Origin: Bacilli bacterium | GTDB taxonomy: Bacteria > Bacillota_I > Bacilli_A > RF39 > UBA660 | Assembly (NCBI GenBank): GCA_028693275.1 | Contig: JAQUVS010000001.1 | Coordinates: 129,206-193,205 of the forward strand | DNA length: 64,000 nucleotides | Reading direction: 5' to 3' | Shown here: one piece after another, positions 3,748 to 52,103 of the stretch | Position numbering within the stretch: position 1 is the stretch's first letter | Layout of the letters: the number at the start of each line of letters is the position of its first letter | Position numbers and translations under genes: made by a program | The notes under the pieces: model-generated | What the model was told of the DNA's origin: nothing | Databases searched by the model: none | Seen by the model: the letters and a program-made list of their open reading frames with translations, nothing else

Positions 3748-4116
3748 ATGTTACAACAAGAAAGCCGTTTAAAGGTTGCTGACAATTCAGGTGCTAGAGA
3801 ACTACTAGTTATTCGTGTACTTGGTGGAAGTAAAGTAAAAACAGGAAATATCGGTGACATAGTTGTTGGTACAGTAAAAAATGCCACACCTAATGGAACT
3901 GTTGGAAAAAGCAAAGTAGTTAAAGCAGTTATCGTTAGAACTAGACAAGGCGTTCGTCGTGAAGATGGAAGTTATATCAAATTCGATGATAATGCGTGCG
4001 TAATTATTAAGGATGATAAGAGTCCTGTTGGAACTCGTATCTTTGGACCAGTAGCACGTGAACTTCGTGATAAAGATTTTATGAAGATAGTTTCTTTAGC
4101 TAAAGAAGTGCTATAG
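3748..4116 (+). CDS. rplN: 50S ribosomal protein L14
   Basis: 122 aa, [16 protein letters not shown].. L14 signature. Confidence 0.96.
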
Positions 4117-9470: not shown

Positions 9471-10217
9471 ATGGTAACAATAAAAAGTGATAGCGAAATT
9501 CAATTATTGAAAATAGCTGGGAATATTGTATATCGTACACATCAATATCTTAAACCATTTTTAAAAGAAGGAATTACAACAAAAGAGTTAGACAAACTAG
9601 CTGAGGACTTCATATTGGAGAATGATGCAACTCCTTCTTTTAAAGGATATGGTGGATTTCCTGGATCTATTTGTGCTAGTATCAATAATGAAGTAGTACA
9701 CGGGATTCCTGGAGATAGAAAATTAAAAACCGGTGATATTGTTTCAATAGATATTGGGGCTTGTTACAAAGGTTATCATGGAGATTCAGCTTGGACTTAT
9801 GCTGTTGGTGAGGTTAGTGAAGAAAAGAAATATCTTATGAAACATACTGAGGCAGCATTATTTGAAGGGTTAAATGAAGTGAAGGCTGGTAATAGAATTG
9901 GGGATATAGGTTTTGCAATTGAAAGTTATGCTAAGAAGCATAATCTTGCAGTAGTTAAAGAACTTGTTGGTCATGGAGTTGGAAGCAATTTACATGAATC
10001 TCCAGATGTTCCAAATTATGGAAATAAAGGAAAAGGTTTAGTCCTAAAAGAAGGAATGGTAATAGCAGTTGAACCAATGTTAAATCTTGGTACAGCAAAT
10101 ATTTTTATTCTTGATGATGATTGGACAATTATAACAGCAGATGAAAAACCATCAGCTCATTATGAGCATACAGTTGCTGTTACAAAAGATGGATACCAAA
10201 TTTTGACGGGAGAGTGA
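9471..10217 (+). CDS. map: type I methionine aminopeptidase
   Basis: 248 aa M24A sequence in the conserved adk-map-infA order. Confidence 0.93.
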
Positions 10218-18718: not shown

Positions 18719-19672
18719 ATGTATAATAGAAGTGGAAAAGAATTTAAAAATTTAGAAGAGCAAATAGAAATTCTAGAGTTCAAGGGATTAATTATATCAA
18801 ATTATGAATTTGCTAAAGAAGTTCTTTTAAGAGAAAATTATTTCTTTTTAAATGGATATAGACATTTATTCATGAAATCAGAAAATAATAAGAGATTTAT
18901 TGATGGTACTACATTTGAAGAATTATATAGTTTATTTTTATTTGATAGACAATTTAGAAATGTAATATTTAAGAATTTATTAATAATTGAAAATAATGTA
19001 AAATCAGTTATATCTTATCAATTATCATTAAAGTATGGGTATAAAGAAAATGATTATCTTAAAGAAAAGAATTTTACTAGAGATCCAGAAAAAAGTAGAC
19101 AAGTAAATGATTTACTTAAGAAAATGAAAAGACAAGTTAGATCTAATGCTAATCAGCATGCAGCTACAATGCATTATGTAAGTAATTATGGTTATATACC
19201 ATTATGGGTATTAGTAAAGGTTTTATCTTTTGGTATTGTAGGAGAATTATTCTCTATTTTAAAAAGAGAAGATCAAGAAATAATAGCTAATATGTATAAT
19301 ATGGATCCAGATGAATTAATTAATAATTTACCTATATTATCTAATTATAGAAATCTTTGTGCACATGAAGATATAGTTTTTGAAAATAAGACACAAAGAG
19401 TTATAGAAGATACTATATATCATCAATTATTAAAGATAAATAAGATGGATGGAGAATATATATATGGTAAGAATGATCTATTTGCTTTAATAATTTTAAT
19501 TAAACAGATGCTTAAAGATGTTGAATTTAAAGATATGGTTATAGAAATAGATAGATTATTGGATAATTTAGCTTATAATTTAAAAACAATACCTTTAAGT
19601 AAGGTATTAGATAGAATGGGATTTCCAGAAAATTGGGAGGATATTCAAAATATTAAAAAGAGGGTGGAATAA
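18719..19672 (+). CDS. Abi_2 (AbiD/AbiF-like) abortive-infection family protein, HEPN-type
   Basis: N-terminal ..EEQIEILEFKGLIISNYEFAKEVLLRENYFFLNGYRHLF.. matches the Abi_2 consensus; RNLCAHED is an HEPN Rx4-6H motif. Confidence 0.75.
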   Translation: MYNRSGKEFKNLEEQIEILEFKGLIISNYEFAKEVLLRENYFFLNGYRHLFMKSENNKRFIDGTTFEELYSLFLFDRQFRNVIFKNLLIIENNVKSVISYQLSLKYGYKENDYLKEKNFTRDPEKSRQVNDLLKKMKRQVRSNANQHAATMHYVSNYGYIPLWVLVKVLSFGIVGELFSILKREDQEIIANMYNMDPDELINNLPILSNYRNLCAHEDIVFENKTQRVIEDTIYHQLLKINKMDGEYIYGKNDLFALIILIKQMLKDVEFKDMVIEIDRLLDNLAYNLKTIPLSKVLDRMGFPENWEDIQNIKKRVE

Positions 19673-40784: not shown

Positions 40785-41462
40785 ATGAAAAAAGTATTTT
40801 TATATTTATATCCAATAGAAGAGTATCAAAGAGTTTTAACTTTCTCTGATAAATACTATATAGAACATAACTTAGAAAGACCTGAAATAGTTTTAAATGA
40901 ATGTATAAAGAAAAGATATATTGATAATGGATATGAAGTGGTAATTGCTAATTATCCAGATAAAGAAGTGTTTGGTATTAATTTAGAAAATATTAGTAGA
41001 ATTATTAATACTGATGTAACTTTTAAGGAAGCTTCCGGTTATAGGGAAGATGGAAGTGAAAAACCTATAGAAGAAGTAAAATATCCAAGTGAAGAATTTC
41101 TATTAGAACAAGTAGGTAATGTGGATGAAATTGTAGTTGGTGGTTTTCATGTATATGATTGTGTAAAAAGAGTGGCAGAACATTTTTATGAAAAGGGAAT
41201 AGATACTATGGTTGATTTAGAACTTACTGATCTTTTATATACTGTGTATAGACAGTCTTATTTTAATAAAGAAATATATAATCCAGCTAATTACAAACAA
41301 TATATGATAGCTTTAGGTTTAAGATGTGGTGAAAGATTAGAAGAAATTCATGATAATCTTAATAAAAGATTTGGTTCTCCAATCTATAGATTTAATGATT
41401 ATGAACCAACTATTTCAGTGGAAGAAGTATTTAAGGATGAAAAAAGAGGGTTAAGAAGGTAG
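40785..41462 (+). CDS. hypothetical protein, possible isochorismatase-like cysteine hydrolase
   Basis: ..EIVVGGFHVYDCVKRVAEHFYEKGIDTMVDLELTD.. resembles the catalytic-Cys strand of the isochorismatase family; weak. Confidence 0.3.
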   Translation: MKKVFLYLYPIEEYQRVLTFSDKYYIEHNLERPEIVLNECIKKRYIDNGYEVVIANYPDKEVFGINLENISRIINTDVTFKEASGYREDGSEKPIEEVKYPSEEFLLEQVGNVDEIVVGGFHVYDCVKRVAEHFYEKGIDTMVDLELTDLLYTVYRQSYFNKEIYNPANYKQYMIALGLRCGERLEEIHDNLNKRFGSPIYRFNDYEPTISVEEVFKDEKRGLRR

Positions 41463-41665: not shown

Positions 41666-43795
41666 GTGATTAGTGTGAACGATTTAAATGAATACTTTGA
41701 TGATATGTTTAAAGAAGTTGATCCAAATATACTTTTAGATGAACAGCAAAGAGAAGCTATTACTATTGATTCTGATAATCTTTTAGTTGTGGCGGGAGCA
41801 GGTAGTGGAAAGTCTACTACTATGGTAGCTAAAGTAAAATATTTAATTGATAAGTGTGGATATAAAGAATCGGAAATTGTAGTTGTCTCTTTTACAAAAA
41901 AGGTAAAAGAAGAATTATCAGAAATCATACATGATAAATTTGGACTAAAAAATGTAGCTGTAACAACTTTTCATAGCTTAGGTTTAGAAATAATTAATAA
42001 GAGCGGTGAAGATGTCGCTGATGTAGTTGATGAAAAAGGTCAATACAAAATATTTTCCAATTATATTAAAAATGTTTTATTTAAGGATAAAGAAAAATTT
42101 AGTTTATTGAATGATGCTTTTTCTAAATATTTAAATTTTGGTGATCAATGGATGTCTTTTGATGATTTTGATACATATCATACTAAAAGTTTTGTTGATA
42201 AATTTAATAAATCAGAAGAAAGTATTAAAGTGTATATTGAAAATCAGATTCTAAGAAGAAGACAATATAAAAAGACAATTAATGGAGAATATACAGCATC
42301 CAAAGAAGAAGTAGATATAGCAAATCTTCTTTATATAAATGGAATAGATTATAATTATGAGCTGAAGTTAAATAATGGATATAAAAAGGGAAGGGGATAT
42401 CATCCTGATTTTTATATTCATCAATTAGAAAAAGAAAATTATATAGAACATTTTGGGGTTGACCAAGATGGAAGTAATTCTATGTATAGTGAAAGCGAAT
42501 TAAAAAATTATTTGTCTATTTTAAAAATTAAGGATAAGTATATTAATAGTTATGAAAACAGAAATAAATTTATTGTTACCTATTCTAGGTATGATAATGG
42601 AAAAACATATTTAACAGATTTAATTGATCAACTTAAGCATAATGGTTATGTTCCACACAAAAGATCAGATGAAGAAATATTTGCTAAATTAATGGATACA
42701 GGTACAGATTATTATTTTTCAGTTTTCGTTGATAAAATTTTGGTACCTGTAATATCAATGTATAAGCAAAGTGGATATTCATATAGAGATTATGATTCAT
42801 TAATAGAGTCAAATGATGGTAATTTGAAAAATCAATTAATAGTTTTAAAAATGTTTCACGAATATTATGAGAAAGAACTTAGTAATAAACATTTAATAGA
42901 TTTTGAAGACATGATTTTAAAGGCATATACTTTAATGCCGATTATTAAAGAAAAGGATTTGGGTGTAGATTATAAGTACTTGATAATAGATGAATATCAA
43001 GATATTTCGAATCAAAGATTAAACTTAGTTAAGAGGCTAGTTGATTTATTTGATGCTAAAGTAATGGCTGTTGGTGATGATTGGCAAACAATATTTGGAT
43101 ATGCAGGTTCTAGAATAGATTTATTTAAAAATTTTTCAAAAGAACTTCCGAATTCAGATCAAGTAGCTATAGAACATACTTATAGAAATAGCCAAGAATT
43201 AATAGATATAGCTGGAGAGTTTGTACTTAAGAATCCTTATCAAATTAAGAAACATTTGATATCTGATAAACATACTATCAATCCTGTTGAAATTATTTTT
43301 TATGATGATGAAGAAAAAGAAAAGGTAAATGGTAATAGAGCTAAATATGTAGACGCAATTCTTGGTAATTTAAGTAAAATAAATCCAAATTGTTCTGTAT
43401 TACTATTAGGTAGGTATCAAAAAGATATATACAAAATAGATGATAAAAAGTACTTTAATATAATGGGTTCAAAAATAAAATCTGTTAATTATGAAAATAT
43501 TGATTTGGAATTTTTAACTATTCATAAGGCAAAGGGATTGGGAAGAGACTATGCGATTTTATTAGATCTTAATGATGATAAATATGGTTTTCCAAGTAAG
43601 ATAGATGATTTACCTATAATAAAGTTAATAAGACCTAAAATAGAAGAAAGTATAGATTTTCCTGAAGAGAGAAGGCTTTTCTATGTTGCTTTAACTAGAA
43701 CAAAGAATAAAATTTATATCTTAGTTCCTAAATGTAAAGAATCAGAGTTTTCTATAGAAATAAAAAAATTCCATAATGTGCGTATATTAAAATAG
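41666..43795 (+). CDS. UvrD/PcrA/Rep-family SF1 DNA helicase
   Basis: Helicase motif I AGAGSGKST, DEYQD (II), GDDWQTIFGYAG (III), TIHKAKGL, and C-terminal LFYVALTR. The start may be GTG 41675. Confidence 0.85.
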   Translation: MISVNDLNEYFDDMFKEVDPNILLDEQQREAITIDSDNLLVVAGAGSGKSTTMVAKVKYLIDKCGYKESEIVVVSFTKKVKEELSEIIHDKFGLKNVAVTTFHSLGLEIINKSGEDVADVVDEKGQYKIFSNYIKNVLFKDKEKFSLLNDAFSKYLNFGDQWMSFDDFDTYHTKSFVDKFNKSEESIKVYIENQILRRRQYKKTINGEYTASKEEVDIANLLYINGIDYNYELKLNNGYKKGRGYHPDFYIHQLEKENYIEHFGVDQDGSNSMYSESELKNYLSILKIKDKYINSYENRNKFIVTYSRYDNGKTYLTDLIDQLKHNGYVPHKRSDEEIFAKLMDTGTDYYFSVFVDKILVPVISMYKQSGYSYRDYDSLIESNDGNLKNQLIVLKMFHEYYEKELSNKHLIDFEDMILKAYTLMPIIKEKDLGVDYKYLIIDEYQDISNQRLNLVKRLVDLFDAKVMAVGDDWQTIFGYAGSRIDLFKNFSKELPNSDQVAIEHTYRNSQELIDIAGEFVLKNPYQIKKHLISDKHTINPVEIIFYDDEEKEKVNGNRAKYVDAILGNLSKINPNCSVLLLGRYQKDIYKIDDKKYFNIMGSKIKSVNYENIDLEFLTIHKAKGLGRDYAILLDLNDDKYGFPSKIDDLPIIKLIRPKIEESIDFPEERRLFYVALTRTKNKIYILVPKCKESEFSIEIKKFHNVRILK

Positions 43796-43826: not shown

Positions 43827-44216
43827 ATGAAAAATGTTGAAGTTGTAGCAGCAGTAATACAGGACGGTAATAAAATTTTAGCTACTAGAAGAGGCTATGG
43901 TGATTTTATCGGTATGTGGGAATTTCCTGGTGGAAAAATTGAAGAAAATGAGACTCGCGAAGTAGCCTTAATAAGGGAAATTAAGGAAGAATTAGATGCG
44001 GATATTGAAGTAGGAAAATTTTTAACAACCGTAGAATATGATTATCCAAAATTTCATTTAATGATGCATTGTTATTTATGTCATTTAAAGGAAAGTAAGA
44101 TAACTCTCGTAGAACACAGTGATGCTAAGTGGCTAGAAAGTGATGAGTTATCATCGATTGATTGGTTGCCAGCGGATATAGAAGTAGTAGATAAAATCAA
44201 AAAATTAGTAAGGTAG
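43827..44216 (+). CDS. NUDIX hydrolase (MutT-like)
   Basis: Nudix box GGKIEENETREVALIREIKEELDA. Confidence 0.85.
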   Translation: MKNVEVVAAVIQDGNKILATRRGYGDFIGMWEFPGGKIEENETREVALIREIKEELDADIEVGKFLTTVEYDYPKFHLMMHCYLCHLKESKITLVEHSDAKWLESDELSSIDWLPADIEVVDKIKKLVR

Positions 44217-44223
44217 GTATATT

Positions 44224-47007
44224 ATGGAAATGAATACAGCAGTAACAAAATCGCTATTTGATAAAGAAGTTGATTCTTTAGTTTATAATCCTAATATAGT
44301 TATAAATGAAAATAGTAAAAATATTAAAGAAAAAATTCAAGAGCTATTACAATCATCAAGTAGAGTTGATATTGCTGTTAGTTATGTTGTATGGTCAGGG
44401 CTCTCTTTAATATATGATGATTTAAAGAAGTTTGATTCTAATAGTAGGTTATTATTAACTACAGAAGGTATGGTTACGGATCCTAGATCACTACAAAAAT
44501 TAAGTGAGTTAAATATGCAGGTAAAAGTTTACGTACCTTTTAATGGTGCAAAAGGATTCCATTTAAAGACATATCTATTTGAAAATGAATCCAAAAGAAC
44601 TTTATTAATTGGAAGTTCTAATATATCATCTAGGGCATTCGGTTTAGTTCATGAAATGGCTGTAGAAATTGATGCTGACAGTAAAGGTTATATAGTAGAA
44701 AAATACAATGAAGTATTTGAACAATTATGGGAAGATGAGTATTCTGAATTCTTGTCAGAACAATATATTGAAGGATATAAAATTCTTTATAAAGAATATA
44801 AAAAAATGAAAAAAGATATTGAAAACATAGTTGAAGATAGCGGTTTAATTAAACCTAATTATATGCAGGAAAAAGCATTGAAGTCACTGGAAGATTGTAG
44901 AGAGACAACTGATAGAGGATTAGTTATTGCAGCTACTGGAACAGGTAAAACGTATTTATCAGCATTTGATGTAAAAAATAGTAAATATAGAAAGGTTCTC
45001 TTCTTGGTTCACAATAGGCTCATTCTCACATCAGCAATTAAAACATTTAAAAAAGTATTTAATGATAAAAGTATGCTAGAATTAACATCTAATAATGTTG
45101 AAGAAGTTTATACTTCAGATTTTATATTTACTACTGACAAAACAGCATATAATTGTTTATTTAATAAAATTCCAAAAGATTATTTTGAATATATAATATA
45201 TGATGAAGCTCATAAAATTGGTTTAGAAACAAAATATAGTGAGTTGCTAGAATATTTTACTCCTAAGTTTACTTTAGGAATAACTGCAACTCCAGAAAGA
45301 ACAGATAATCCAGATTATTTATTTAAAACATTTAAGTACAGTATTCCTTATGAAATTAGATTACTTGAAGCAATGAAATATGAACTGGTTTGTCCGTTTA
45401 CTTATTATGGATTAACGCTTAAAGAAAATTTATTAAAAGCAAACGAAGAATATGATTATGCTGAATTAGCAAAATATTTGAAAAAAGTAATTGCTGAAAA
45501 AGGTCATTACGGAGAAAAATTAAAGTGTCTAATTTTTTGCTCATCAATTAATGAAGCAAAATCAACATCTGAAGAACTTAGTAAAATAGGATTTAAATCA
45601 GTTGCTTCGGTAAGCTCAGAATCAGGAAATGATAGAGATTCAACTGAGCAGTATATTAATGATTTAAAATCTGATATTGATGGTACTTTAGAAATTATTT
45701 GTACAGTAAATAAATTTAATGAAGGAATTGATATTCCTGATATAAATACAATTATTATGCTTAGAAATACAGTATCATCAATAATTTACTTGCAGCAATT
45801 AGGGCGCGGTCTAAGAAAAACAAATGATCAGCATAAGTATGTGACAATATTTGATATAATTGGCAATTCAAAAAATAATTATTCAATTGCTCAAGTATTA
45901 ACAGGTAATACTACAGTTGATAAAAGAAATCTATATAGATATGCAAACGAAGAGTTTCAAACTGTTTCTCCTTTTATAAATGTACAGATAGAAAAAGAAG
46001 CAATGGAAAATATAATTAAATCAATTTCCAATAATTTTACTGTTAAAACAAAAATTAAAGAAAAGTTTAGAGATGAATTATTTAGATTTAAAGAAATACC
46101 TACTTTACTTGAACTTTATATAAATCCTAATTTTAAAGAGTTAGATTTGTTACAATTGTTATTTAGAAATTTCTATGACCCATTTGAAGAATATTATTAT
46201 ACAAAATATTTTATAGAAAAGTCTAACAAGTTTATTAATGATTTTTTTACTCTTATTTCTCAATTTGTATTTAGGGGATATGATAATAAAACATTAAAAG
46301 ATTATGTGAAAATTTTGAAGGGTGAAAAAGTAAAAAATGAAATTTTAGAAAAAGTACTACTTTCAACTGAAATTACAAATGGAATATCAACTTTTATCTT
46401 TAGTGATTATTATAAAGCGACAAAAAATAATCCAAAAGTTTTTGTTATCAGTGATAATTATTTAACTCTTAATGATGAAATATATAAAGAATTAGAAAAA
46501 AATAATGCAATGAAGTTATTTGAAGAACATATCGAACTTTTCGAATATTTAAGTAATCAAATTGAATATCAGATGAAACCATTTGATTTAGTTGACAAAG
46601 GTGAATTTTTATTTAATTCTGGAAGTAAAGATTGCTATATGAATGTTGTTGGTGAAAGAATTGATAAAGATAGAAAAACAGTGTACTGTACTATTAACAT
46701 AACAAGAAAAGATTCATTCTATGATAATTACATTATTGATGATCATAAATTTGTTTATTATACGCAAGGTTCATCGACTGAAGTAAAAGCAAAAGAGAAA
46801 ATTGATATGTTTATAAAAGATAATTACAAATTTAATGTGTGTGCAAAATTTCCACATTTGGGTTATACGAATACCGTATATTTTAATTTAGGCGAAGTGG
46901 ATATATCAAAAATATCTGATGTTATCGAAACTGAAAAAGGCAAGTTTAATCATGAAATTGAATTTGAATTAAAAGATAAATTTCCAATCGAATTATTACA
47001 ATATTGA
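44224..47007 (+). CDS. PLD-family nuclease domain, SF2 (DEAH-like) helicase and DUF3427 C-terminal domain fusion
   Basis: N-terminal HKD motif GFHLKTYLF..LLIGSSNIS. SF2 motifs GLVIAATGTGKT and IYDEAHK, plus helicase C-terminal QQLGRGLR. The ~300-aa C-terminal domain is DUF3427-like. Confidence 0.75.
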   Translation: MEMNTAVTKSLFDKEVDSLVYNPNIVINENSKNIKEKIQELLQSSSRVDIAVSYVVWSGLSLIYDDLKKFDSNSRLLLTTEGMVTDPRSLQKLSELNMQVKVYVPFNGAKGFHLKTYLFENESKRTLLIGSSNISSRAFGLVHEMAVEIDADSKGYIVEKYNEVFEQLWEDEYSEFLSEQYIEGYKILYKEYKKMKKDIENIVEDSGLIKPNYMQEKALKSLEDCRETTDRGLVIAATGTGKTYLSAFDVKNSKYRKVLFLVHNRLILTSAIKTFKKVFNDKSMLELTSNNVEEVYTSDFIFTTDKTAYNCLFNKIPKDYFEYIIYDEAHKIGLETKYSELLEYFTPKFTLGITATPERTDNPDYLFKTFKYSIPYEIRLLEAMKYELVCPFTYYGLTLKENLLKANEEYDYAELAKYLKKVIAEKGHYGEKLKCLIFCSSINEAKSTSEELSKIGFKSVASVSSESGNDRDSTEQYINDLKSDIDGTLEIICTVNKFNEGIDIPDINTIIMLRNTVSSIIYLQQLGRGLRKTNDQHKYVTIFDIIGNSKNNYSIAQVLTGNTTVDKRNLYRYANEEFQTVSPFINVQIEKEAMENIIKSISNNFTVKTKIKEKFRDELFRFKEIPTLLELYINPNFKELDLLQLLFRNFYDPFEEYYYTKYFIEKSNKFINDFFTLISQFVFRGYDNKTLKDYVKILKGEKVKNEILEKVLLSTEITNGISTFIFSDYYKATKNNPKVFVISDNYLTLNDEIYKELEKNNAMKLFEEHIELFEYLSNQIEYQMKPFDLVDKGEFLFNSGSKDCYMNVVGERIDKDRKTVYCTINITRKDSFYDNYIIDDHKFVYYTQGSSTEVKAKEKIDMFIKDNYKFNVCAKFPHLGYTNTVYFNLGEVDISKISDVIETEKGKFNHEIEFELKDKFPIELLQY

Positions 47008-47032
47008 ATTTAAACATATTATAAATCTATTA

Positions 47033-47058
47033 ATCACTAGAAATAGTGATTTTTATTT
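47033..47058 (+). terminator. terminator fused to the downstream promoter
   Basis: ATCACTAgaaaTAGTGAT hairpin plus T-run, followed by TATAAT at 47066-47071 and RBS AGAGGTG at 47078-47084. Confidence 0.6.
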
Positions 47059-47090: not shown

Positions 47091-47561
47091 ATGTCTAAGA
47101 TAAGTAATATTTTAAATATGATTCAGTTACTAAGTAGTGGAAGAAAATATAGTATTAAAGAGTTATCGGATAAGTTAGAAGTAACTCCTAGACAAATTAG
47201 AACTTATAAAGAAGAATTAGAACTTGCAGGTATATATATTGATTCAATTAAAGGACCATATGGAGGATATATTTTAAATCAAAATATAAATGTTCCTAAA
47301 AGGTTTATTACTCCTAGAGATATTAAAGGGTTAGATCAATATAATTATAAAGAAATTAATAGGGCTATAAAAGAAAAAAAGAAATGTTATATTGAGTATT
47401 ATGCTAGGGATAAATCTATTTCAAATAGGATAATAGAACCTTATGATTTAATTTTATTTGGAGATCTGTGGGGTGTTGCTGCTTATTGTGAATTGAAACA
47501 AGAAATAAGAAATTTTTATTTAAATAGAATTAAAAGTATTAAAATTTTAGATAATAAATAA
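47091..47561 (+). CDS. short HTH-WYL domain transcriptional regulator (BrxR/CapW-like, lacking WCX)
   Basis: N-terminal wHTH (LNMIQLLSSGRKYSIKELSDKLEVTPRQIRTYKEEL) followed by a WYL-type motif ..RIIEPYDLILFGDLWGVAAYCELKQEIRNFYLNRIKSI. Confidence 0.65.
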   Translation: MSKISNILNMIQLLSSGRKYSIKELSDKLEVTPRQIRTYKEELELAGIYIDSIKGPYGGYILNQNINVPKRFITPRDIKGLDQYNYKEINRAIKEKKKCYIEYYARDKSISNRIIEPYDLILFGDLWGVAAYCELKQEIRNFYLNRIKSIKILDNK

Positions 47562-47615: not shown

Positions 47616-48227
47616 ATGAATAAAGTTTTTTATGTTACAGGTAATTATGGAAAATATGTTTCTGTAAGGGATTCTTTTGATGGGGAAGATATTGAAATAG
47701 ATTTTTTAAATCTTGATTTTAATGAACCTGATGTTAATGATATAGAATATGTATCTAAATCTAAAGTAATGGAAGCTTATGAAAAATTAGGTGAGCCTTG
47801 CTTTGTTATTGATAGTGGTTTTTATATTAATAGTTATCCCAATAATCCAGGTTATCCTGGAGCTTTTGTTAAAAGAAGTGGTATAAGTTCAGATGTTAAT
47901 AATTTACTTTCTGTTATGAGGAATATTAACGATAGAAGTTGTTATTTTTTAGATTGTTTAACTTTTTATGATGGAGAAAATTTATATACTTTTTTTGGTA
48001 AGTGTAGTGGTAATCTTTCTTATGATGTTAGAGGTAGTTATTTAGAAAAAGCTTGGTCAAATTTATGGAGAGTATTTATTCCTAATAACTGTGATAAGTC
48101 TTTATCTGAAATGAATGATTTAGAAAGAAAAAATAGAGACGATGGTAGAACTTCTGCTATTGGTAATTTTATAGAGTGGTATAAAAATGATTATCATAAT
48201 ATAAATGTTCTTAAAAAGACTTTATAA
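47616..48227 (+). CDS. Ham1/RdgB-family non-canonical purine NTP pyrophosphatase-like protein
   Basis: VTGNYGK (like ATGNxGK), CFVIDSGFYINSYPNNPGYPGAF (like DDSGLxVxALxGxPGxYSAR) and C-terminal DDGRTSAIG (like SHRGxA). Confidence 0.6.
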   Translation: MNKVFYVTGNYGKYVSVRDSFDGEDIEIDFLNLDFNEPDVNDIEYVSKSKVMEAYEKLGEPCFVIDSGFYINSYPNNPGYPGAFVKRSGISSDVNNLLSVMRNINDRSCYFLDCLTFYDGENLYTFFGKCSGNLSYDVRGSYLEKAWSNLWRVFIPNNCDKSLSEMNDLERKNRDDGRTSAIGNFIEWYKNDYHNINVLKKTL

Positions 48228-48273: not shown

Positions 48274-48852
48274 ATGAAAATATTATTAGGAAGTAATAAT
48301 GAAAGTAAGAAAAAATCATTAGAAAGAGCTTTATACGAACTTGAAATAAAAGATTATGAAATAATTAATTTTGATGTAGACAGTGAAACTAATAGTAAGC
48401 CTATTGGATTTGAAATTCTTAGGGGAGCAGAAAATAGAAATAAGAATTTAAAGGCTATAGCAATATTCAAAGAAATTGAATATGATTACTTATGTTCTAT
48501 CGAAGGGGGATTTGAAGTAGATCAAAATGGATTACCAAGTGTTGTTACTTATTGTATTATTGAAGATAAGGACGGTAATATGTTTACAGGTAAATCTTTT
48601 AATATAAGGATTACTAAAGCAATGTTTGAATTTACTAAAAAGGGTGGTTCTTTAAATAGTGTTATTAAAGATATTGTTAAGGATCATACTAAAACTAAAG
48701 GTGGAATAATCGGTTATCTATCTGATGGCTTATATAATAGGGATGATATGGATAGTGGTTCAGTTGTTTCTGCTTTTATACCAATTGTTTATAAAGAACA
48801 AAGAAGTTTATTAGATGAAAAAGTAAAGTCTTTATTAAATAAGAAAAACTAA
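48274..48852 (+). CDS. YjjX-family inosine/xanthosine triphosphatase-like protein
   Basis: LLGSNNESK, GAENRNKN and GGIIGYLSDGLYNRDDMDSGSVVSAF align to YjjX blocks (TTNPAK, GARNR, GAIGxFTxGxLTR). Confidence 0.55.
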   Translation: MKILLGSNNESKKKSLERALYELEIKDYEIINFDVDSETNSKPIGFEILRGAENRNKNLKAIAIFKEIEYDYLCSIEGGFEVDQNGLPSVVTYCIIEDKDGNMFTGKSFNIRITKAMFEFTKKGGSLNSVIKDIVKDHTKTKGGIIGYLSDGLYNRDDMDSGSVVSAFIPIVYKEQRSLLDEKVKSLLNKKN

Positions 48853-48866
48853 TATGAGGTGATTTT

Positions 48867-49583
48867 ATGATTTGGAATCCTTGGAGAGGTTGTCATAAAT
48901 ATAGTGATGGTTGTAAGTATTGCTATATTCATAAAGGAGATAAAAAAAGAGGAATAGATACTTCTTTAATTGTTTTGACTAAGGATTTTGATAAGCCAAT
49001 TGCTAAACTAAAAGATGGTACTTATAAAATCAAAAGTGGTTTAGTTTATACTTGTTTTTCATCTGATTTTTTAATAGAAGAAATGGATCAATATAGATTA
49101 GAATGCTATGATATGATGAGGCAAAGAAGCGATCTTAATTTTTTATTTTTAACTAAAAGAATAGAAAGATTTATGGAAGTTTTACCAAGTGATTGGGATA
49201 ATGGTTATGATAATGTAATTGTATGCTGTACTATTGAAAATCAAAAAACAGCTAACTATCGTTTAAATATTTTTAAAGATTTACCAATTAAGCATAAATG
49301 TATTACTATTCAACCAATGCTTGAAAAAATTAATATTATTGACTACTTAAATGATATAGAATTAGTTGTAGTTGGTGGTGAATCGGATATAAATGCAAGA
49401 TTTTTAGATTATGATTGGGTTTTAGATATTAGAGAACAATGTATAAAGACTAATACTAATTTTGAGTTTAGACAATGTGGAACTCATTTTATTAAGGATG
49501 ATAAATTATTTAATATACCAACTAAAAATTTATGTAAACAAGCGATACTAGCTAATATTAATTACTACAGGGAGAAAAAATAA
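48867..49583 (+). CDS. DUF5131 (phage Gp37/Gp68 family) three-Cys-motif protein
   Basis: N-terminus MIWNPWRGCHKYSDGCKYCY matches the family start tWNPxtGCxxxSxGCxxCY (Cx6Cx2C). Confidence 0.65.
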   Translation: MIWNPWRGCHKYSDGCKYCYIHKGDKKRGIDTSLIVLTKDFDKPIAKLKDGTYKIKSGLVYTCFSSDFLIEEMDQYRLECYDMMRQRSDLNFLFLTKRIERFMEVLPSDWDNGYDNVIVCCTIENQKTANYRLNIFKDLPIKHKCITIQPMLEKINIIDYLNDIELVVVGGESDINARFLDYDWVLDIREQCIKTNTNFEFRQCGTHFIKDDKLFNIPTKNLCKQAILANINYYREKK

Positions 49584-51121
49584 TGAAAGAATATTTAGAA
49601 TTATGTAAAGATAAATTATTATATGAGATATGTGAATTACTGGGAATTGAAAAATTGACAGAAGATAATGATAATGATTATATTTGGTCTATCGTAACTT
49701 CTACTTTATTACATAATGAAAAATTATGTGGAGAAGAAAAAATAGAACAGTATTTAGATTCTTTACCTATAGCTAAATCTATTGAAAGTCATATATTAAG
49801 ATATGCCTTAGATACTAGTTGTGTTTTAGATACTGATAGGTTTAAAAATTATTTTTTAGATAACGATAATAAATTTAGTGATTATAATTCTTTTGATAAA
49901 TATACTTTTTTAACAGAACAATATATATTGGAAGATAAAGATAATTATTTGTCTGATTTGGATATTAGTTATGGAAGTAATTCGGCTATTATTACTGATG
50001 AACTTTTAGATTATAAGAAATTGATAAAAAGAGTTAGAAATAGTTTAGCTCATTCTAATTATGAGATTGTTAATGATGATCAAATTAGACTTTATCATTA
50101 TGATGATAATAATGTTTTAGATTTTAATGTTTTATTATGTAAACCTTTAGTTATAACTATTATTGATGAGATAAATGAAAAATCTTATAATTTATATAGT
50201 AATCTACTTGATGAATTAGGAAATTATAATACTAATAATAAAGAATCTAGAGAAATAAATGATAAAGATATTCAAAGTTATTTAGATGAATATAAGTTTT
50301 TAACAGAAAAAGATAAGTTGAAAATAATTAGACATACTTATAATTGGATAAAAGAAAATCAAATTACTAATAAGTATCTAGTATATGATAGATTAGATAA
50401 AGCAGCTTTTGTAAAGATTAAAAATACTTATAATAGTGCTTTAGTATTAGATTCATTAATAGTTACTAATTATAATAGTGATCCGTTATACTCTGATTAT
50501 TTGTATCACCGATATGGAGTTTATGAATATTCTTCTTTTGATATTAGGACATTTGCTATTTATAAGGAAGAAAAATTAAGATTACTATTGATATCTTTAC
50601 TTAATGTTATTTTCTTATATGGCTCTAATACTAGTAGTAAAGTATTTGATTTATCGTTGGTAGAAACTGATTCTAAGTTTGTTTTGAAAAAAGAGAAAGC
50701 ATTTATTAAAGAAAAAGAAGAAAAACAAAGAGAAATAGATAATATTAAAACATCTATAAATACAAAAAAAGAGATATTAAAAGATAAATATATTGATAAT
50801 GAATATTTTAATAAAATCTTACCAGAAGTTATTTCTTCTTTAGAAATAAAAATAATTGAAAAGGAATCTAGTTTTCCTAATTTTAAAGAAATAAATGTAC
50901 TTGCTCATATTAGAAATAGTTTAGCTCATGGGAATACTATATATAATCATAATAAGCAAGAACTTATATTTAAAGATTATGATCCTTTTACTCATAAACT
51001 TACTTATCTTGGTAAAATAAGTATAGAAAATTTATTTATTTTACTTAAAGATAATGGTATCATTAGTGGTAGAAAAGCAGTTAAGAAACTAGCAGGAGGT
51101 TTTTTATGCATAAATATGTAG
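49583..51121 (+). CDS. tandem-HEPN domain protein (two RNSLAH Rx4H motifs), predicted RNase
   Basis: RNSLAHSNYEIV around residue 150 and IRNSLAHGNTIYNH around residue 440; the same RNxxAH motif type as the Abi_2 protein at 18719. Confidence 0.6.
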   Translation: MKEYLELCKDKLLYEICELLGIEKLTEDNDNDYIWSIVTSTLLHNEKLCGEEKIEQYLDSLPIAKSIESHILRYALDTSCVLDTDRFKNYFLDNDNKFSDYNSFDKYTFLTEQYILEDKDNYLSDLDISYGSNSAIITDELLDYKKLIKRVRNSLAHSNYEIVNDDQIRLYHYDDNNVLDFNVLLCKPLVITIIDEINEKSYNLYSNLLDELGNYNTNNKESREINDKDIQSYLDEYKFLTEKDKLKIIRHTYNWIKENQITNKYLVYDRLDKAAFVKIKNTYNSALVLDSLIVTNYNSDPLYSDYLYHRYGVYEYSSFDIRTFAIYKEEKLRLLLISLLNVIFLYGSNTSSKVFDLSLVETDSKFVLKKEKAFIKEKEEKQREIDNIKTSINTKKEILKDKYIDNEYFNKILPEVISSLEIKIIEKESSFPNFKEINVLAHIRNSLAHGNTIYNHNKQELIFKDYDPFTHKLTYLGKISIENLFILLKDNGIISGRKAVKKLAGGFLCINM

Positions 51122-51561
51122 TTTTAGAATTAATTCCTACTCATACTGATCCTAAACTTGGAGAAGTAATTCAATTATCAGCTTTAAAAATAGATAATTT
51201 AAAATTAGTAGATAGATTTGATTATAGATTAAATGAAGAAAAAATACTTATAAATGAGTTAATAAAATTAATTAGTTATGATAAGGATTCTTTTACATAT
51301 CTTGATAGTACTAATGATATTTTAGAAGAATTTCAAAACTTTGTTGATGATTATAAAATTGTATATATTGATAATACTTATACATATAATTATATAAGTT
51401 ATTTAAAAGGAGATAAGGTTTCTATTAATTCTCTTTTAAATATTAGTAAAAAAGATGATGTAGTTGAAGAAATTATGAAAAGATATAATATAGAACCTAG
51501 TAATTACATAGTGGATATATTATATGAAGGGCTTATTTATAAAAGTAATGAGGTGGCTTAA
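51106..51561 (+). CDS. small protein with weak DnaQ-like 3'-5' exonuclease resemblance (possibly inactive)
   Basis: VVLELIPTHTDPKLGEVIQLSALKID resembles Exo motif I (vvfDxETTG..eIIeigavk) but with the first Asp replaced by Leu. Overlaps both neighbours. Confidence 0.3.
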   Translation: MHKYVVLELIPTHTDPKLGEVIQLSALKIDNLKLVDRFDYRLNEEKILINELIKLISYDKDSFTYLDSTNDILEEFQNFVDDYKIVYIDNTYTYNYISYLKGDKVSINSLLNISKKDDVVEEIMKRYNIEPSNYIVDILYEGLIYKSNEVA

Positions 51562-52103
51562 TGAAATTATTATTTATATCTGATATTCATGGAATAGTTG
51601 ATAATTTAAATTATATTGAAAATCTTTTAACAGAAGAAAAATTTGATAAATTAATTGTTCTAGGTGATTTATATTATATGGGATTTAATTCTATTGATAA
51701 TCATTCTTTTAATAATACTTTAGTTAAAGATTTTTTATATAAAAATAGAAATAAATTAATTTGTATGAGGGGTAATTGTGATTCAGATGTTGATATAGTT
51801 ACTTCTGACTTTCCAATTGCAAGTGGATTATCTTTAATAAATGTAGATGGAATAGATATTTATATAACACATGGTCATGAGTATAATATTGAAAGCAAGA
51901 GACATAAGTTTAATAATTGTTTCTTGGTATATGGTCATAAGCATTTTCCTTTTATAGAAAAAGTAGAAGACGTTACATATATTAATACTGGTTCTATATC
52001 ATTACCTAGAAATAATAGTAATCCTACGTATTTAGTTTATGAGGATAGAAAGTTTACTATCTATGATATATATGGTAATAAAGTAGATGAAATATATTGT
52101 TAG
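51561..52103 (+). CDS. metallophosphoesterase (YfcE/MJ0936-type calcineurin-like phosphodiesterase)
   Basis: Motifs SDIHG, GDL, GNCD, THGH, GHKH. Confidence 0.8.
   Translation: MKLLFISDIHGIVDNLNYIENLLTEEKFDKLIVLGDLYYMGFNSIDNHSFNNTLVKDFLYKNRNKLICMRGNCDSDVDIVTSDFPIASGLSLINVDGIDIYITHGHEYNIESKRHKFNNCFLVYGHKHFPFIEKVEDVTYINTGSISLPRNNSNPTYLVYEDRKFTIYDIYGNKVDEIYC

Follow-up and report, generated by a model that had tools for sequence, protein, structure and literature searches.

HEPN ribonucleases (RNases) normally need two chains per active site. Cas13 is the well-known exception and is reportedly explained in recent work as the fusion of two AbiF-like HEPN genes. Could a bacterial protein outside the Cas13 lineage also combine both halves of such a site in one chain? 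This question is raised by a 64,000-nt stretch of contig JAQUVS010000001.1 (Bacilli bacterium, assembly GCA_028693275.1, positions 129,206 to 193,205 of the forward strand), which we refer to as the window. The open reading frame (ORF) at 49583..51121 (+), with an ATG start and the stop codon included, encodes a 512-aa protein with two R-N-x-x-A-H motifs, called the double-HEPN protein in the following. On balance we favour the reading that it is a stand-alone pseudo-dimeric HEPN RNase with a single composite site and a role in conflict or defence, where the pairing of the two halves and the RNase activity would follow by analogy with known HEPN enzymes. The protein is 100% identical to the NCBI entry 'MAG: hypothetical protein PHQ64_01005 [Bacilli bacterium]' (MAG: metagenome-assembled genome), and a ribosome binding site (GGGAG) is located ~10 nt 5' of the start, inside the 3' end of the preceding gene.

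Motifs and their conservation in the family

The HEPN superfamily is defined by the pattern Rx4-6H with a polar residue (N, D or H) right after the R (PMC3710099). We found this pattern twice in the protein, as R152-N-S-L-A-H157 and as R444-N-S-L-A-H449 (both Rx4H). The first RNSLAH hexamer covers residues 152-157 (50036..50053, +; aa 152-163 read RNSLAHSNYEIV) and the second residues 444-449 (50912..50929, +; aa 443-456 read IRNSLAHGNTIYNH). The separation is 292 residues, in agreement with the ~290 residues given in a preliminary description of this DNA. For the composition of the protein we would expect 0.0006 occurrences of RNxxAH and the Poisson probability of at least two is ~2e-7, which excludes that the two motifs arose by chance. 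RNxxAH is present three times in those open frames of the window that reach 100 aa or more: twice in the double-HEPN gene and once in the ORF at 18719. The latter encodes a genuine Abi_2 protein (PF07751, E = 1.3e-41), and the preliminary description was right that its motif (YRNLCAHED) has the same spacing.

An exhaustive hidden Markov model (HMM) search over 1.84 billion representative proteins returned 136 matches at E ≤ 1e-3, 71 at E ≤ 1e-10 and 41 at E ≤ 1e-30. The family amounts to ~136 clusters at 50% identity, all of which are labelled hypothetical. Most of the profile matches are full-length proteins of 500-860 aa and some are short single-domain proteins of 100-190 aa, genuine PF18736 proteins included; three size classes can be distinguished (~510-620, 650-700 and 830 aa). 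At 90% identity, at least 319 clusters belong to a more distant branch with lengths of 550-575 aa; they are either unnamed or 'unknown' throughout, and 'Mycoplasma sp. CAG:472' is represented among them. Scanning 185,579 species genomes with an 11-sequence alignment yielded 13 loci, of which 11 are labelled Bacilli MAGs, one Firmicutes and one unclassified bacterium. Most of these loci come from gut samples, and the sources named are goat rectum or rumen, human (Hadza, Nepal) and probably rabbit. The family is thus a sizeable block of 'hypothetical proteins', for which even a basic functional assignment would be useful as 'Mycoplasma sp. CAG:472' has no genetics.

Across 61 divergent full-length relatives the mean column identity was 15% and the only invariant columns were R152, A156, H157, R444 and H449. 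The columns N153, A448, G450, D465 and F475 were conserved in at least 90% of these sequences, as was N445 in the second motif. The strict two-motif pattern was observed in 72 of the 84 representatives of at least 450 aa. Seven of the remaining 12 keep R-x4-H in both modules with variant inner residues (RC..AH, RD..VH, RN..VH), two have a K for the R of the N-terminal motif and three are apparently truncated. The flavours of the two motifs are fixed and distinct, with AHS-NYE in the N-terminal module and AHG-N in the C-terminal module.

Two modules related to the pEK499_p136 family

The AlphaFold2 (AF2) model of the full-length protein has a mean predicted local distance difference test score (pLDDT) of 76.6 and a predicted template modelling score (pTM) of 0.75. 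Both modules consist of a helix ending in R-N-x-x-A-H, followed by three beta strands and then another helix. The N-terminal module (aa 1-205; 49583..50197, +) was delimited by the AF2 secondary structure and by profile alignments. For this module we propose the following layout: helix 1 at aa 2-20, helix 2 at aa 34-49 with the conserved W35/L43, a poorly modelled insert at 50-143, helix 3 at 144-156, three beta strands at 160-186 and helix 4 at 187-203. It is followed by a linker (aa 206-300; 50198..50482, +) which is helical in the AF2 model and, as far as could be detected, resembles neither of the modules nor any family (hhalign controls E ~0.6-0.7). For the C-terminal module (aa 301-497; 50483..51073, +) the proposed layout is helix 2 at 325-346 (conserved SxLN), a helical-hairpin insert, helix 3 at 439-448, three beta strands at 452-480 (conserved IxFxDY) and helix 4 at 481-490. 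The hairpin insert in the AF2 model comprises 66 residues (aa 364-429; 50672..50869, +) in two helices, 364-401 and 407-429, with pLDDT values of 88-94, and is a candidate regulatory or sensor element. The motif of HEPN domains has been described at the C-terminal end of helix 3, and inserts are frequent between helices 2 and 3 (PMC3710099). In the AF2 model H157 and H449 come directly after the ends of the helices 144-156 and 439-448, so that both motifs lie at the end of helix 3 with an exposed His in the predicted structure.

Comparing the N with the C module by hhalign gave 96-97% (E = 4e-9 to 4e-11), whereas the linker controls gave E ~0.7. The match reaches back to helix 2 once the inserts are removed. 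Judging by this similarity the two modules are the products of an ancient internal duplication.

We then compared each module with an alignment of nine single-domain proteins of the family PF18736 (pEK499_p136), which was defined computationally in 2013 by Anantharaman et al. (PMC3710099). The alignment contains eight Pfam-matching short relatives and the namesake of the family, a 166-aa 'HEPN family nuclease' (WP_000528932) from the E. coli plasmid pEK499. Seven of the nine, the namesake among them, exceed the Pfam gathering threshold for PF18736 of 26.6 bits; the namesake (NC_013122, 111726-112226, annotated 'HEPN family nuclease') scores 168 bits. The hhalign results were 98.9-99.1% for the C module (E = 1e-18 to 4e-17), 96.6-97.2% for the N module (E = 4e-11 to 7e-10) and 0.1% for the linker control. 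The single pEK499 sequence gave 19-66% against the modules. When the short single-domain relatives (n = 9) were scanned, six were above the threshold (P0127 with 107 bits, P0108 with 92, P0092 with 66.5, P0120 with 61, P0114 with 36.9 and P0129 with 29.5), two were just under it and one had no match. PF18736 is matched directly by seven of the 61 family members (best E = 2.8e-9), and the relative P0007 matches it in two stretches (E = 4.4e-5) with 23.7 bits, slightly short of the threshold. In addition, 11 proteins from the first search carry the precomputed Pfam label PF18736 'HEPN pEK499_p136', graded 'weak' or 'faint'.

By profile similarity to a curated family the modules are HEPN domains, as indicated by hhalign, by the reciprocal retrieval of PF18736 proteins and by the seven direct matches. 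By Pfam's own rule the protein is not a member of PF18736: it is below the threshold, and it is not a single domain of ~150-170 aa as it has 512 aa, two modules, a linker and an insert. As it lacks a score above the threshold we regard it as part of a divergent sister group. The resemblance to pEK499_p136 proteins extends to the motif flavour (h-R-N-S-x-A-H-G-N), the order of helix, three strands and helix after the motif, the I-x-F-x-D-Y strand and the L-N in helix 2. The known members, however, consist of one domain of ~150-170 aa and have to find their partner in a second chain, whereas here two diverged copies, a ~95-aa linker and the 66-aa hairpin insert are found in one 512-aa chain.

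The preliminary description had interpreted the protein as a covalently tandem Abi_2/HEPN pair. The tandem part of this claim stands, given the two homologous HEPN modules and the strict conservation of the motifs. The Abi_2 part was rejected: with the C-terminal half scanned alone Abi_2 was reported at E = 4.6 (7.9 bits), and hhalign against the Abi_2 protein of the window gave 0.6-3%, restricted to the motif. In contrast to these values, hhalign gave 97-99% to the PF18736 alignment, and we therefore describe the protein as a tandem of the pEK499_p136 type. The same scan of the C-terminal half listed HEPN_RiboL-PSP at E = 0.0033. We found no match of the 512-aa protein in the NCBIfam and PHROGs scans, and the matches to PADLOC models were weak and centred on the motif (CARF_HEPN E = 0.0015, RTasHEPN E = 0.01).

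Structure prediction had been suggested as a check for two HEPN folds. The AF2 model has the motifs at the helix ends, but three fold searches on two models returned no significant HEPN match, and for the full model Foldseek against the PDB listed nothing at E < 1. Part of this failure can be explained by the PDB itself, in which we could not detect any entry for the PF18736-type profile by sequence. There, both this profile and the family profile retrieved only coiled-coil or pentatricopeptide repeat (PPR) noise, and we attribute the coiled-coil noise to the hairpin insert.

A proposed composite site within one chain

The RNase sites of HEPN proteins are bipartite and located at dimer interfaces. 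In AbiF, Csm6, HepT and DARNA the paired motifs come from different subunits, while Cas13 supplies both from a single chain (10.64898/2026.02.22.705581; PMC12165695; PMC12737573). Because known HEPN sites are built between two Rx4-6H motifs, we infer an intramolecular pseudo-dimer for the double-HEPN protein. In the proposed mechanism each of the two diverged pEK499_p136-type domains would provide one R-N-x-x-A-H at the end of its third core helix, and the N and C domains would pack against each other to give one composite site within the chain. This site would cut single-stranded RNA independently of metal ions and leave 2',3'-cyclic phosphate ends. The gene, which evolves fast, is solitary and has a patchy placement, most likely encodes a latent toxin for conflict or anti-phage defence, acting by abortive infection or growth arrest; the helical linker and the hairpin of the C domain would hold the enzyme inactive until it is triggered. 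That the enzyme may be self-contained is suggested by the two homologous modules, the dyads that are conserved amid drift and the lack of an obligatory partner.

The two motifs could also be used between chains. In this case the protein would form a homodimer or oligomer with at least two sites, by N-N', C-C' or head-to-tail contacts. Most HEPN proteins homodimerise (PMC12165695; 10.64898/2026.02.22.705581; PMC12737573), DARNA forms dodecamers (10.64898/2026.02.22.705581) and the hairpin at aa 364-429 might promote oligomerisation. We nevertheless consider sites between chains somewhat unlikely. The diverged and fixed flavours AHS-NYE and AHG-N are what we would expect of two non-equivalent halves of one site. 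Furthermore, the pTM points to a single compact chain, and the N domain is predicted less confidently when modelled alone: the pLDDT of the first 50 residues dropped from 67-90 in the full model, with 76-90 for the N-terminal helices, to 37-57 for the isolated N half. This loss of confidence is consistent with packing of the N half against the rest of the chain.

Cas13, and especially the compact Cas13an, likewise carries a pair of HEPN domains on a single polypeptide of comparable length; these domains dimerise intramolecularly into one RNase site (PMC12165695), and the R-N-x-x-x-H spacing is common to both proteins. A length of 512 aa had been put forward as an argument against Cas13; since Cas13an is equally compact (PMC12165695) this argument is invalid. 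The other argument, the want of a CRISPR array, is sound: neither in the 64-kb window nor in the five relatives' loci scanned for repeats did we find a CRISPR-like array, and no Rfam match (E ≤ 1) accompanies the double-HEPN gene. These results also bear on the more general idea of an enzyme that is guided by RNA or controlled by an RNA antitoxin, i.e. a compact Cas13-like effector or an AbiF-like type III toxin. The two HEPN domains in a chain of ~500 aa would fit such an enzyme, as in Cas13an (PMC12165695), and AbiF and Cas13 demonstrate that HEPN enzymes can be RNA-controlled (PMC12737573). We regard it as extremely improbable here, as neither arrays nor direct repeats occur in the window or the five loci, no guide RNA was found at the gene, the gene of the window has no flanking intergenic space, no similarity to Abi_2 was detected and the fold searches of the double-HEPN models gave no structural match to Cas13 entries. 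One candidate for an antitoxin RNA, a conserved stretch of ~225 nt upstream of the 833-aa subfamily, was rejected. It is explained by a remnant of the secA 3' end, a terminator and a promoter, which argues for a monocistronic 833-aa gene and against a hidden non-coding RNA (ncRNA).

AbiD/AbiF (Abi_2) proteins share the R-N-x-x-A-H motif of defence-type HEPN RNases with the double-HEPN protein. However, AbiF carries only one HEPN domain, pairs as a symmetric homodimer and is neutralised by an ncRNA encoded in cis (PMC12737573), whereas for the double-HEPN protein no significant PF07751 match and no associated ncRNA (RF03085 / AbiFr) were found. Closer in organisation is DARNA (PD-T7-3), which also combines a HEPN nuclease with helical non-catalytic parts in one self-contained gene. 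DARNA is latent until triggered as its own loops occlude the active site (10.64898/2026.02.22.705581). We adopted the functional model for the double-HEPN protein from DARNA, and self-gating by the linker or the hairpin is a guess based on the analogy with these occluding loops. Unlike the double-HEPN protein, DARNA contributes a single HEPN domain per chain and depends on oligomerisation to assemble its sites. ApeA, PD-T4-2 and HepS are further HEPN-containing anti-viral systems (10.64898/2026.02.22.705581).

The relationship to Cas13 can be specified further. Cas13an groups with AbiD/F (PMC12165695) and the double-HEPN protein with pEK499_p136; the two belong to different HEPN families, which argues for an independent duplication. 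We offer as a tentative and still rather doubtful possibility that the family represents a second, independent origin of a single-chain HEPN pseudo-dimer, outside the lineage from AbiF to Cas13, by duplication and fusion of a pEK499_p136-type HEPN gene. The halves would have specialised into one asymmetric site, and the protein would be a self-contained sensor and effector of uncultured gut Bacilli, gated by its own hairpin insert instead of an antitoxin, a guide RNA or a signalling nucleotide. If true, single-chain HEPN pseudo-dimers arise repeatedly and from different HEPN lineages, and the family would serve as a compact reference without a guide for studying how the activity of such sites is suppressed and triggered. 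The tandem single-chain form of pEK499_p136 appears not to have been described previously. The family table of PMC3710099 gives no tandem architecture for pEK499_p136 and a term search of the text found no mention of one. Our literature search for tandem, dual or double HEPN proteins returned papers on Cas13, Las1 and DARNA only, and in the literature searched pEK499_p136 is named only by the 2013 computational survey (PMC3710099).

Genomic neighbourhoods and the role of the gene

The double-HEPN family occurs in at least nine different neighbourhoods, and a search for conserved partners across ~20 distinct loci found no gene family common beyond close relatives. The gene of relative P0004 is a lone gene between phosphoketolase and amidase genes, that of P0007 has an AAA ATPase with an S8 protease and an ORC/CDC6-like gene in its vicinity, and that of P0009 is located beside restriction-modification (R-M) cassettes, an OLD-family nuclease and fragments of insertion sequences (IS). 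The 833-aa subfamily typically follows hpf-secA. For the distant branch of 550-575 aa we recorded the sites ftsK/prfB, veg/spoVG, gerM/ylbD and AI-2E transporter/PBP5. Loosely recurring neighbours are WYL (loci L015 and L024), NTPase_I-T (L015), Ham1 with NUDIX (L022), Fic (L015) and ADP-ribosylglycohydrolase (L014). Some neighbours, namely R-M genes and ADP-ribose-related enzymes, are of the types that PMC3710099 gives for pEK499_p136. The fast evolution, the variable placement and the occasional defence-gene neighbours are the reasons why we favour conflict or defence over a housekeeping function.

Several observations weigh against the favoured reading. Many relatives are flanked by housekeeping genes, and one recurs across numerous samples of the same gut species, which would be compatible with a housekeeping role as well. 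We found no relative on plasmids or phages (tblastn, both collections) or on IMG/VR contigs (pattern scan), and the double-HEPN gene matches no known system in PADLOC-DB 2.0. No antitoxin or immunity partner was identified, which leaves the tolerance of a toxic RNase without explanation. With regard to the HEPN assignment, the 512-aa protein scanned whole has no Pfam match at E ≤ 10, and PF18736 was matched neither by the whole protein nor by its halves. The first of these points would fit a lineage-specific housekeeping enzyme for RNA processing or decay in small-genome gut Bacilli. It would account for relatives between secA, prfB, hrcA-dnaK, veg/spoVG and ftsK, for the CAG:472 version being present in 104 blocks of the assembly collection and for the failure to find an antitoxin, a phage or plasmid copy or a PADLOC match. 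However, housekeeping genes normally hold their position and evolve slowly. Here we observed at least nine genomic positions, three size classes and a mean column identity of 15% with only catalytic residues invariant. In addition, some neighbours are R-M genes, an OLD-family nuclease, Fic, an AAA+S8 protease and IS elements, and the GC content of the gene is 21% compared with 26% for the window, its local average. A housekeeping role therefore seems quite improbable to us, and we retain a stand-alone RNase of conflict or defence.

In the window the gene is part of a co-directional string headed by a helix-turn-helix (HTH)-WYL regulator at 47091-47561 (+; PF13280 E = 5.8e-16, HTH_11). A Ham1-like gene (47616-48227, +), an NTPase_I-T gene (48274-48852, +) and a DUF5131 gene (48867..49583, +) follow. 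The product of the latter has a Cys-rich N-terminus and belongs to a radical-SAM-related family (PF07505 E = 1e-39; PADLOC PDC-M30B/M41B; phrog_2045). Downstream of the double-HEPN gene are a DEDD-exonuclease-like ORF of 151 aa (51106..51561, +; NCBIfam PolC/3'-5' exonuclease E = 1.6e-7 to 7e-6, falling well short of the cut-offs) and a YfcE-type metallophosphoesterase (51561..52103, +; NF006988 with 140.6 bits at a cut-off of 117, PF12850). Overlaps of 1, 16 and 1 nt join the DUF5131, double-HEPN, DEDD-like and YfcE genes and argue for co-transcription of these last four genes.

This arrangement underlies a further explanation, in which the protein is the toxic effector of a WYL-controlled multi-gene system (Ham1-like, NTPase_I-T, DUF5131, DEDD-like, YfcE), as the preliminary description had suggested. 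The tight co-directional packing with its overlaps would fit, the order is repeated in locus L003, and the recurrence of WYL in L015 and L024, of NTPase_I-T in L015 and of Ham1 with NUDIX in L022 points in the same direction. A different phosphodiesterase overlaps the gene in CAG:472, and Cas13d is modulated by a WYL protein (PMC5935466). Yet the order NTPase / DUF5131 / DEDD-like / YfcE / ABC is common only to the window and L003, where the double-HEPN protein is 63% identical, and shared ancestry explains a synteny that is complete only there. All other subfamilies are without these partners, in the 833-aa subfamily the gene comes with a promoter region of its own and with a terminator upstream, and Ham1, NUDIX and YfcE are common housekeeping genes. 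No neighbour of the DUF5131 gene matches the A component of PADLOC PDC-M30/M41. A consensus scan for promoters and terminators was uninformative in such AT-rich DNA (65 sites against 76 expected at 24% GC). Thus the arrangement itself is real in the window and in L003, but it is absent from at least eight other contexts, and as evidence for an effector of the operon it is weak. We consider such a multi-gene system unlikely and prefer the self-contained RNase.

Several features of the surrounding DNA were recorded along the way. In the DEDD-like ORF the Exo I motif is degenerate, with VVLELIPT for D-x-E (it reads L-E-L-I), so that by sequence the ORF is probably a catalytically dead exonuclease fold; it is 84% identical to its counterpart in L003. 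The interval 43827-47007 (+) contains a NUDIX gene that matches the PADLOC single-gene candidate PDC-S07 (E = 8e-52) and, 7 nt after it, a gene for a 927-aa protein with PLD and ResIII helicase domains and a match to type IV methyl-directed restriction enzymes (E = 6e-88). A helicase IV/UvrD-like gene (41666-43795) is located just 5' of the NUDIX gene. With the PDC-S07 candidate and the type IV restriction-like PLD-helicase adjoining, the region around the double-HEPN gene resembles a small defence islet. The stretch from the PLD-helicase to the WYL gene contains a hairpin followed by a T-run at 47031-47058 (AATCACTA-GAAA-TAGTGATT-TTTATTTT), which plausibly separates two transcription units and is too AT-rich for the terminator scan to score. 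Further upstream, 8 kb 5' of the double-HEPN gene, a 225-aa ORF at 40785-41462 (+) has no Pfam match; its homologue in L023 (8381-9016) lies directly 5' of the double-HEPN gene of that locus.

The Abi_2 gene of the window (AbiD/F-type HEPN; 18719-19672, +) is flanked by a minus-strand gene for a Zn-dependent phospholipase C and by an HtrA-like protease gene, and hardly any intergenic DNA is left around it. No Rfam match was found for it at E ≤ 1, the AbiF-associated RNA included, and together with the tight flanks this suggests that it may lack an ncRNA antitoxin of the AbiF type.

Similar observations were made at the loci of relatives. The secA remnant encodes the zinc motif CPCGSGKKYKQCCGK and is found together with the terminator directly 5' of the 833-aa homologue in L008 (~9800-9870) and L009 (~3970-4040). 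It stays beside the homologue even where R-M cassettes part it from the intact secA, which marks the site downstream of secA as an insertion hotspot. In L015 (11197-15848) and L024 (1348-2943) a WYL-HTH homologue with 41-44% identity to the WYL protein of the window is followed by a gene of the same unannotated family in both loci (424 aa in L015; 318 aa in L024, ending ~60 nt from the contig end). Two genes with Fic domains are located just 5' of the cassette in L015. This suggests that a separate WYL-controlled cassette travels near the double-HEPN gene. In the Mycoplasma sp. CAG:472-type contigs (L025-L028, 5609-9665) the distant double-HEPN homologue closes a tight string of five genes, just 5' of hrcA-grpE-dnaK. 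Preceding it are three short ORFs that lack annotation (151, 140 and 143 aa) and a Phosphodiest/PglZ-like gene, which overlaps the double-HEPN start by 4 nt and is a second phosphoesterase adjoining the family. The string is a possible multi-gene system.

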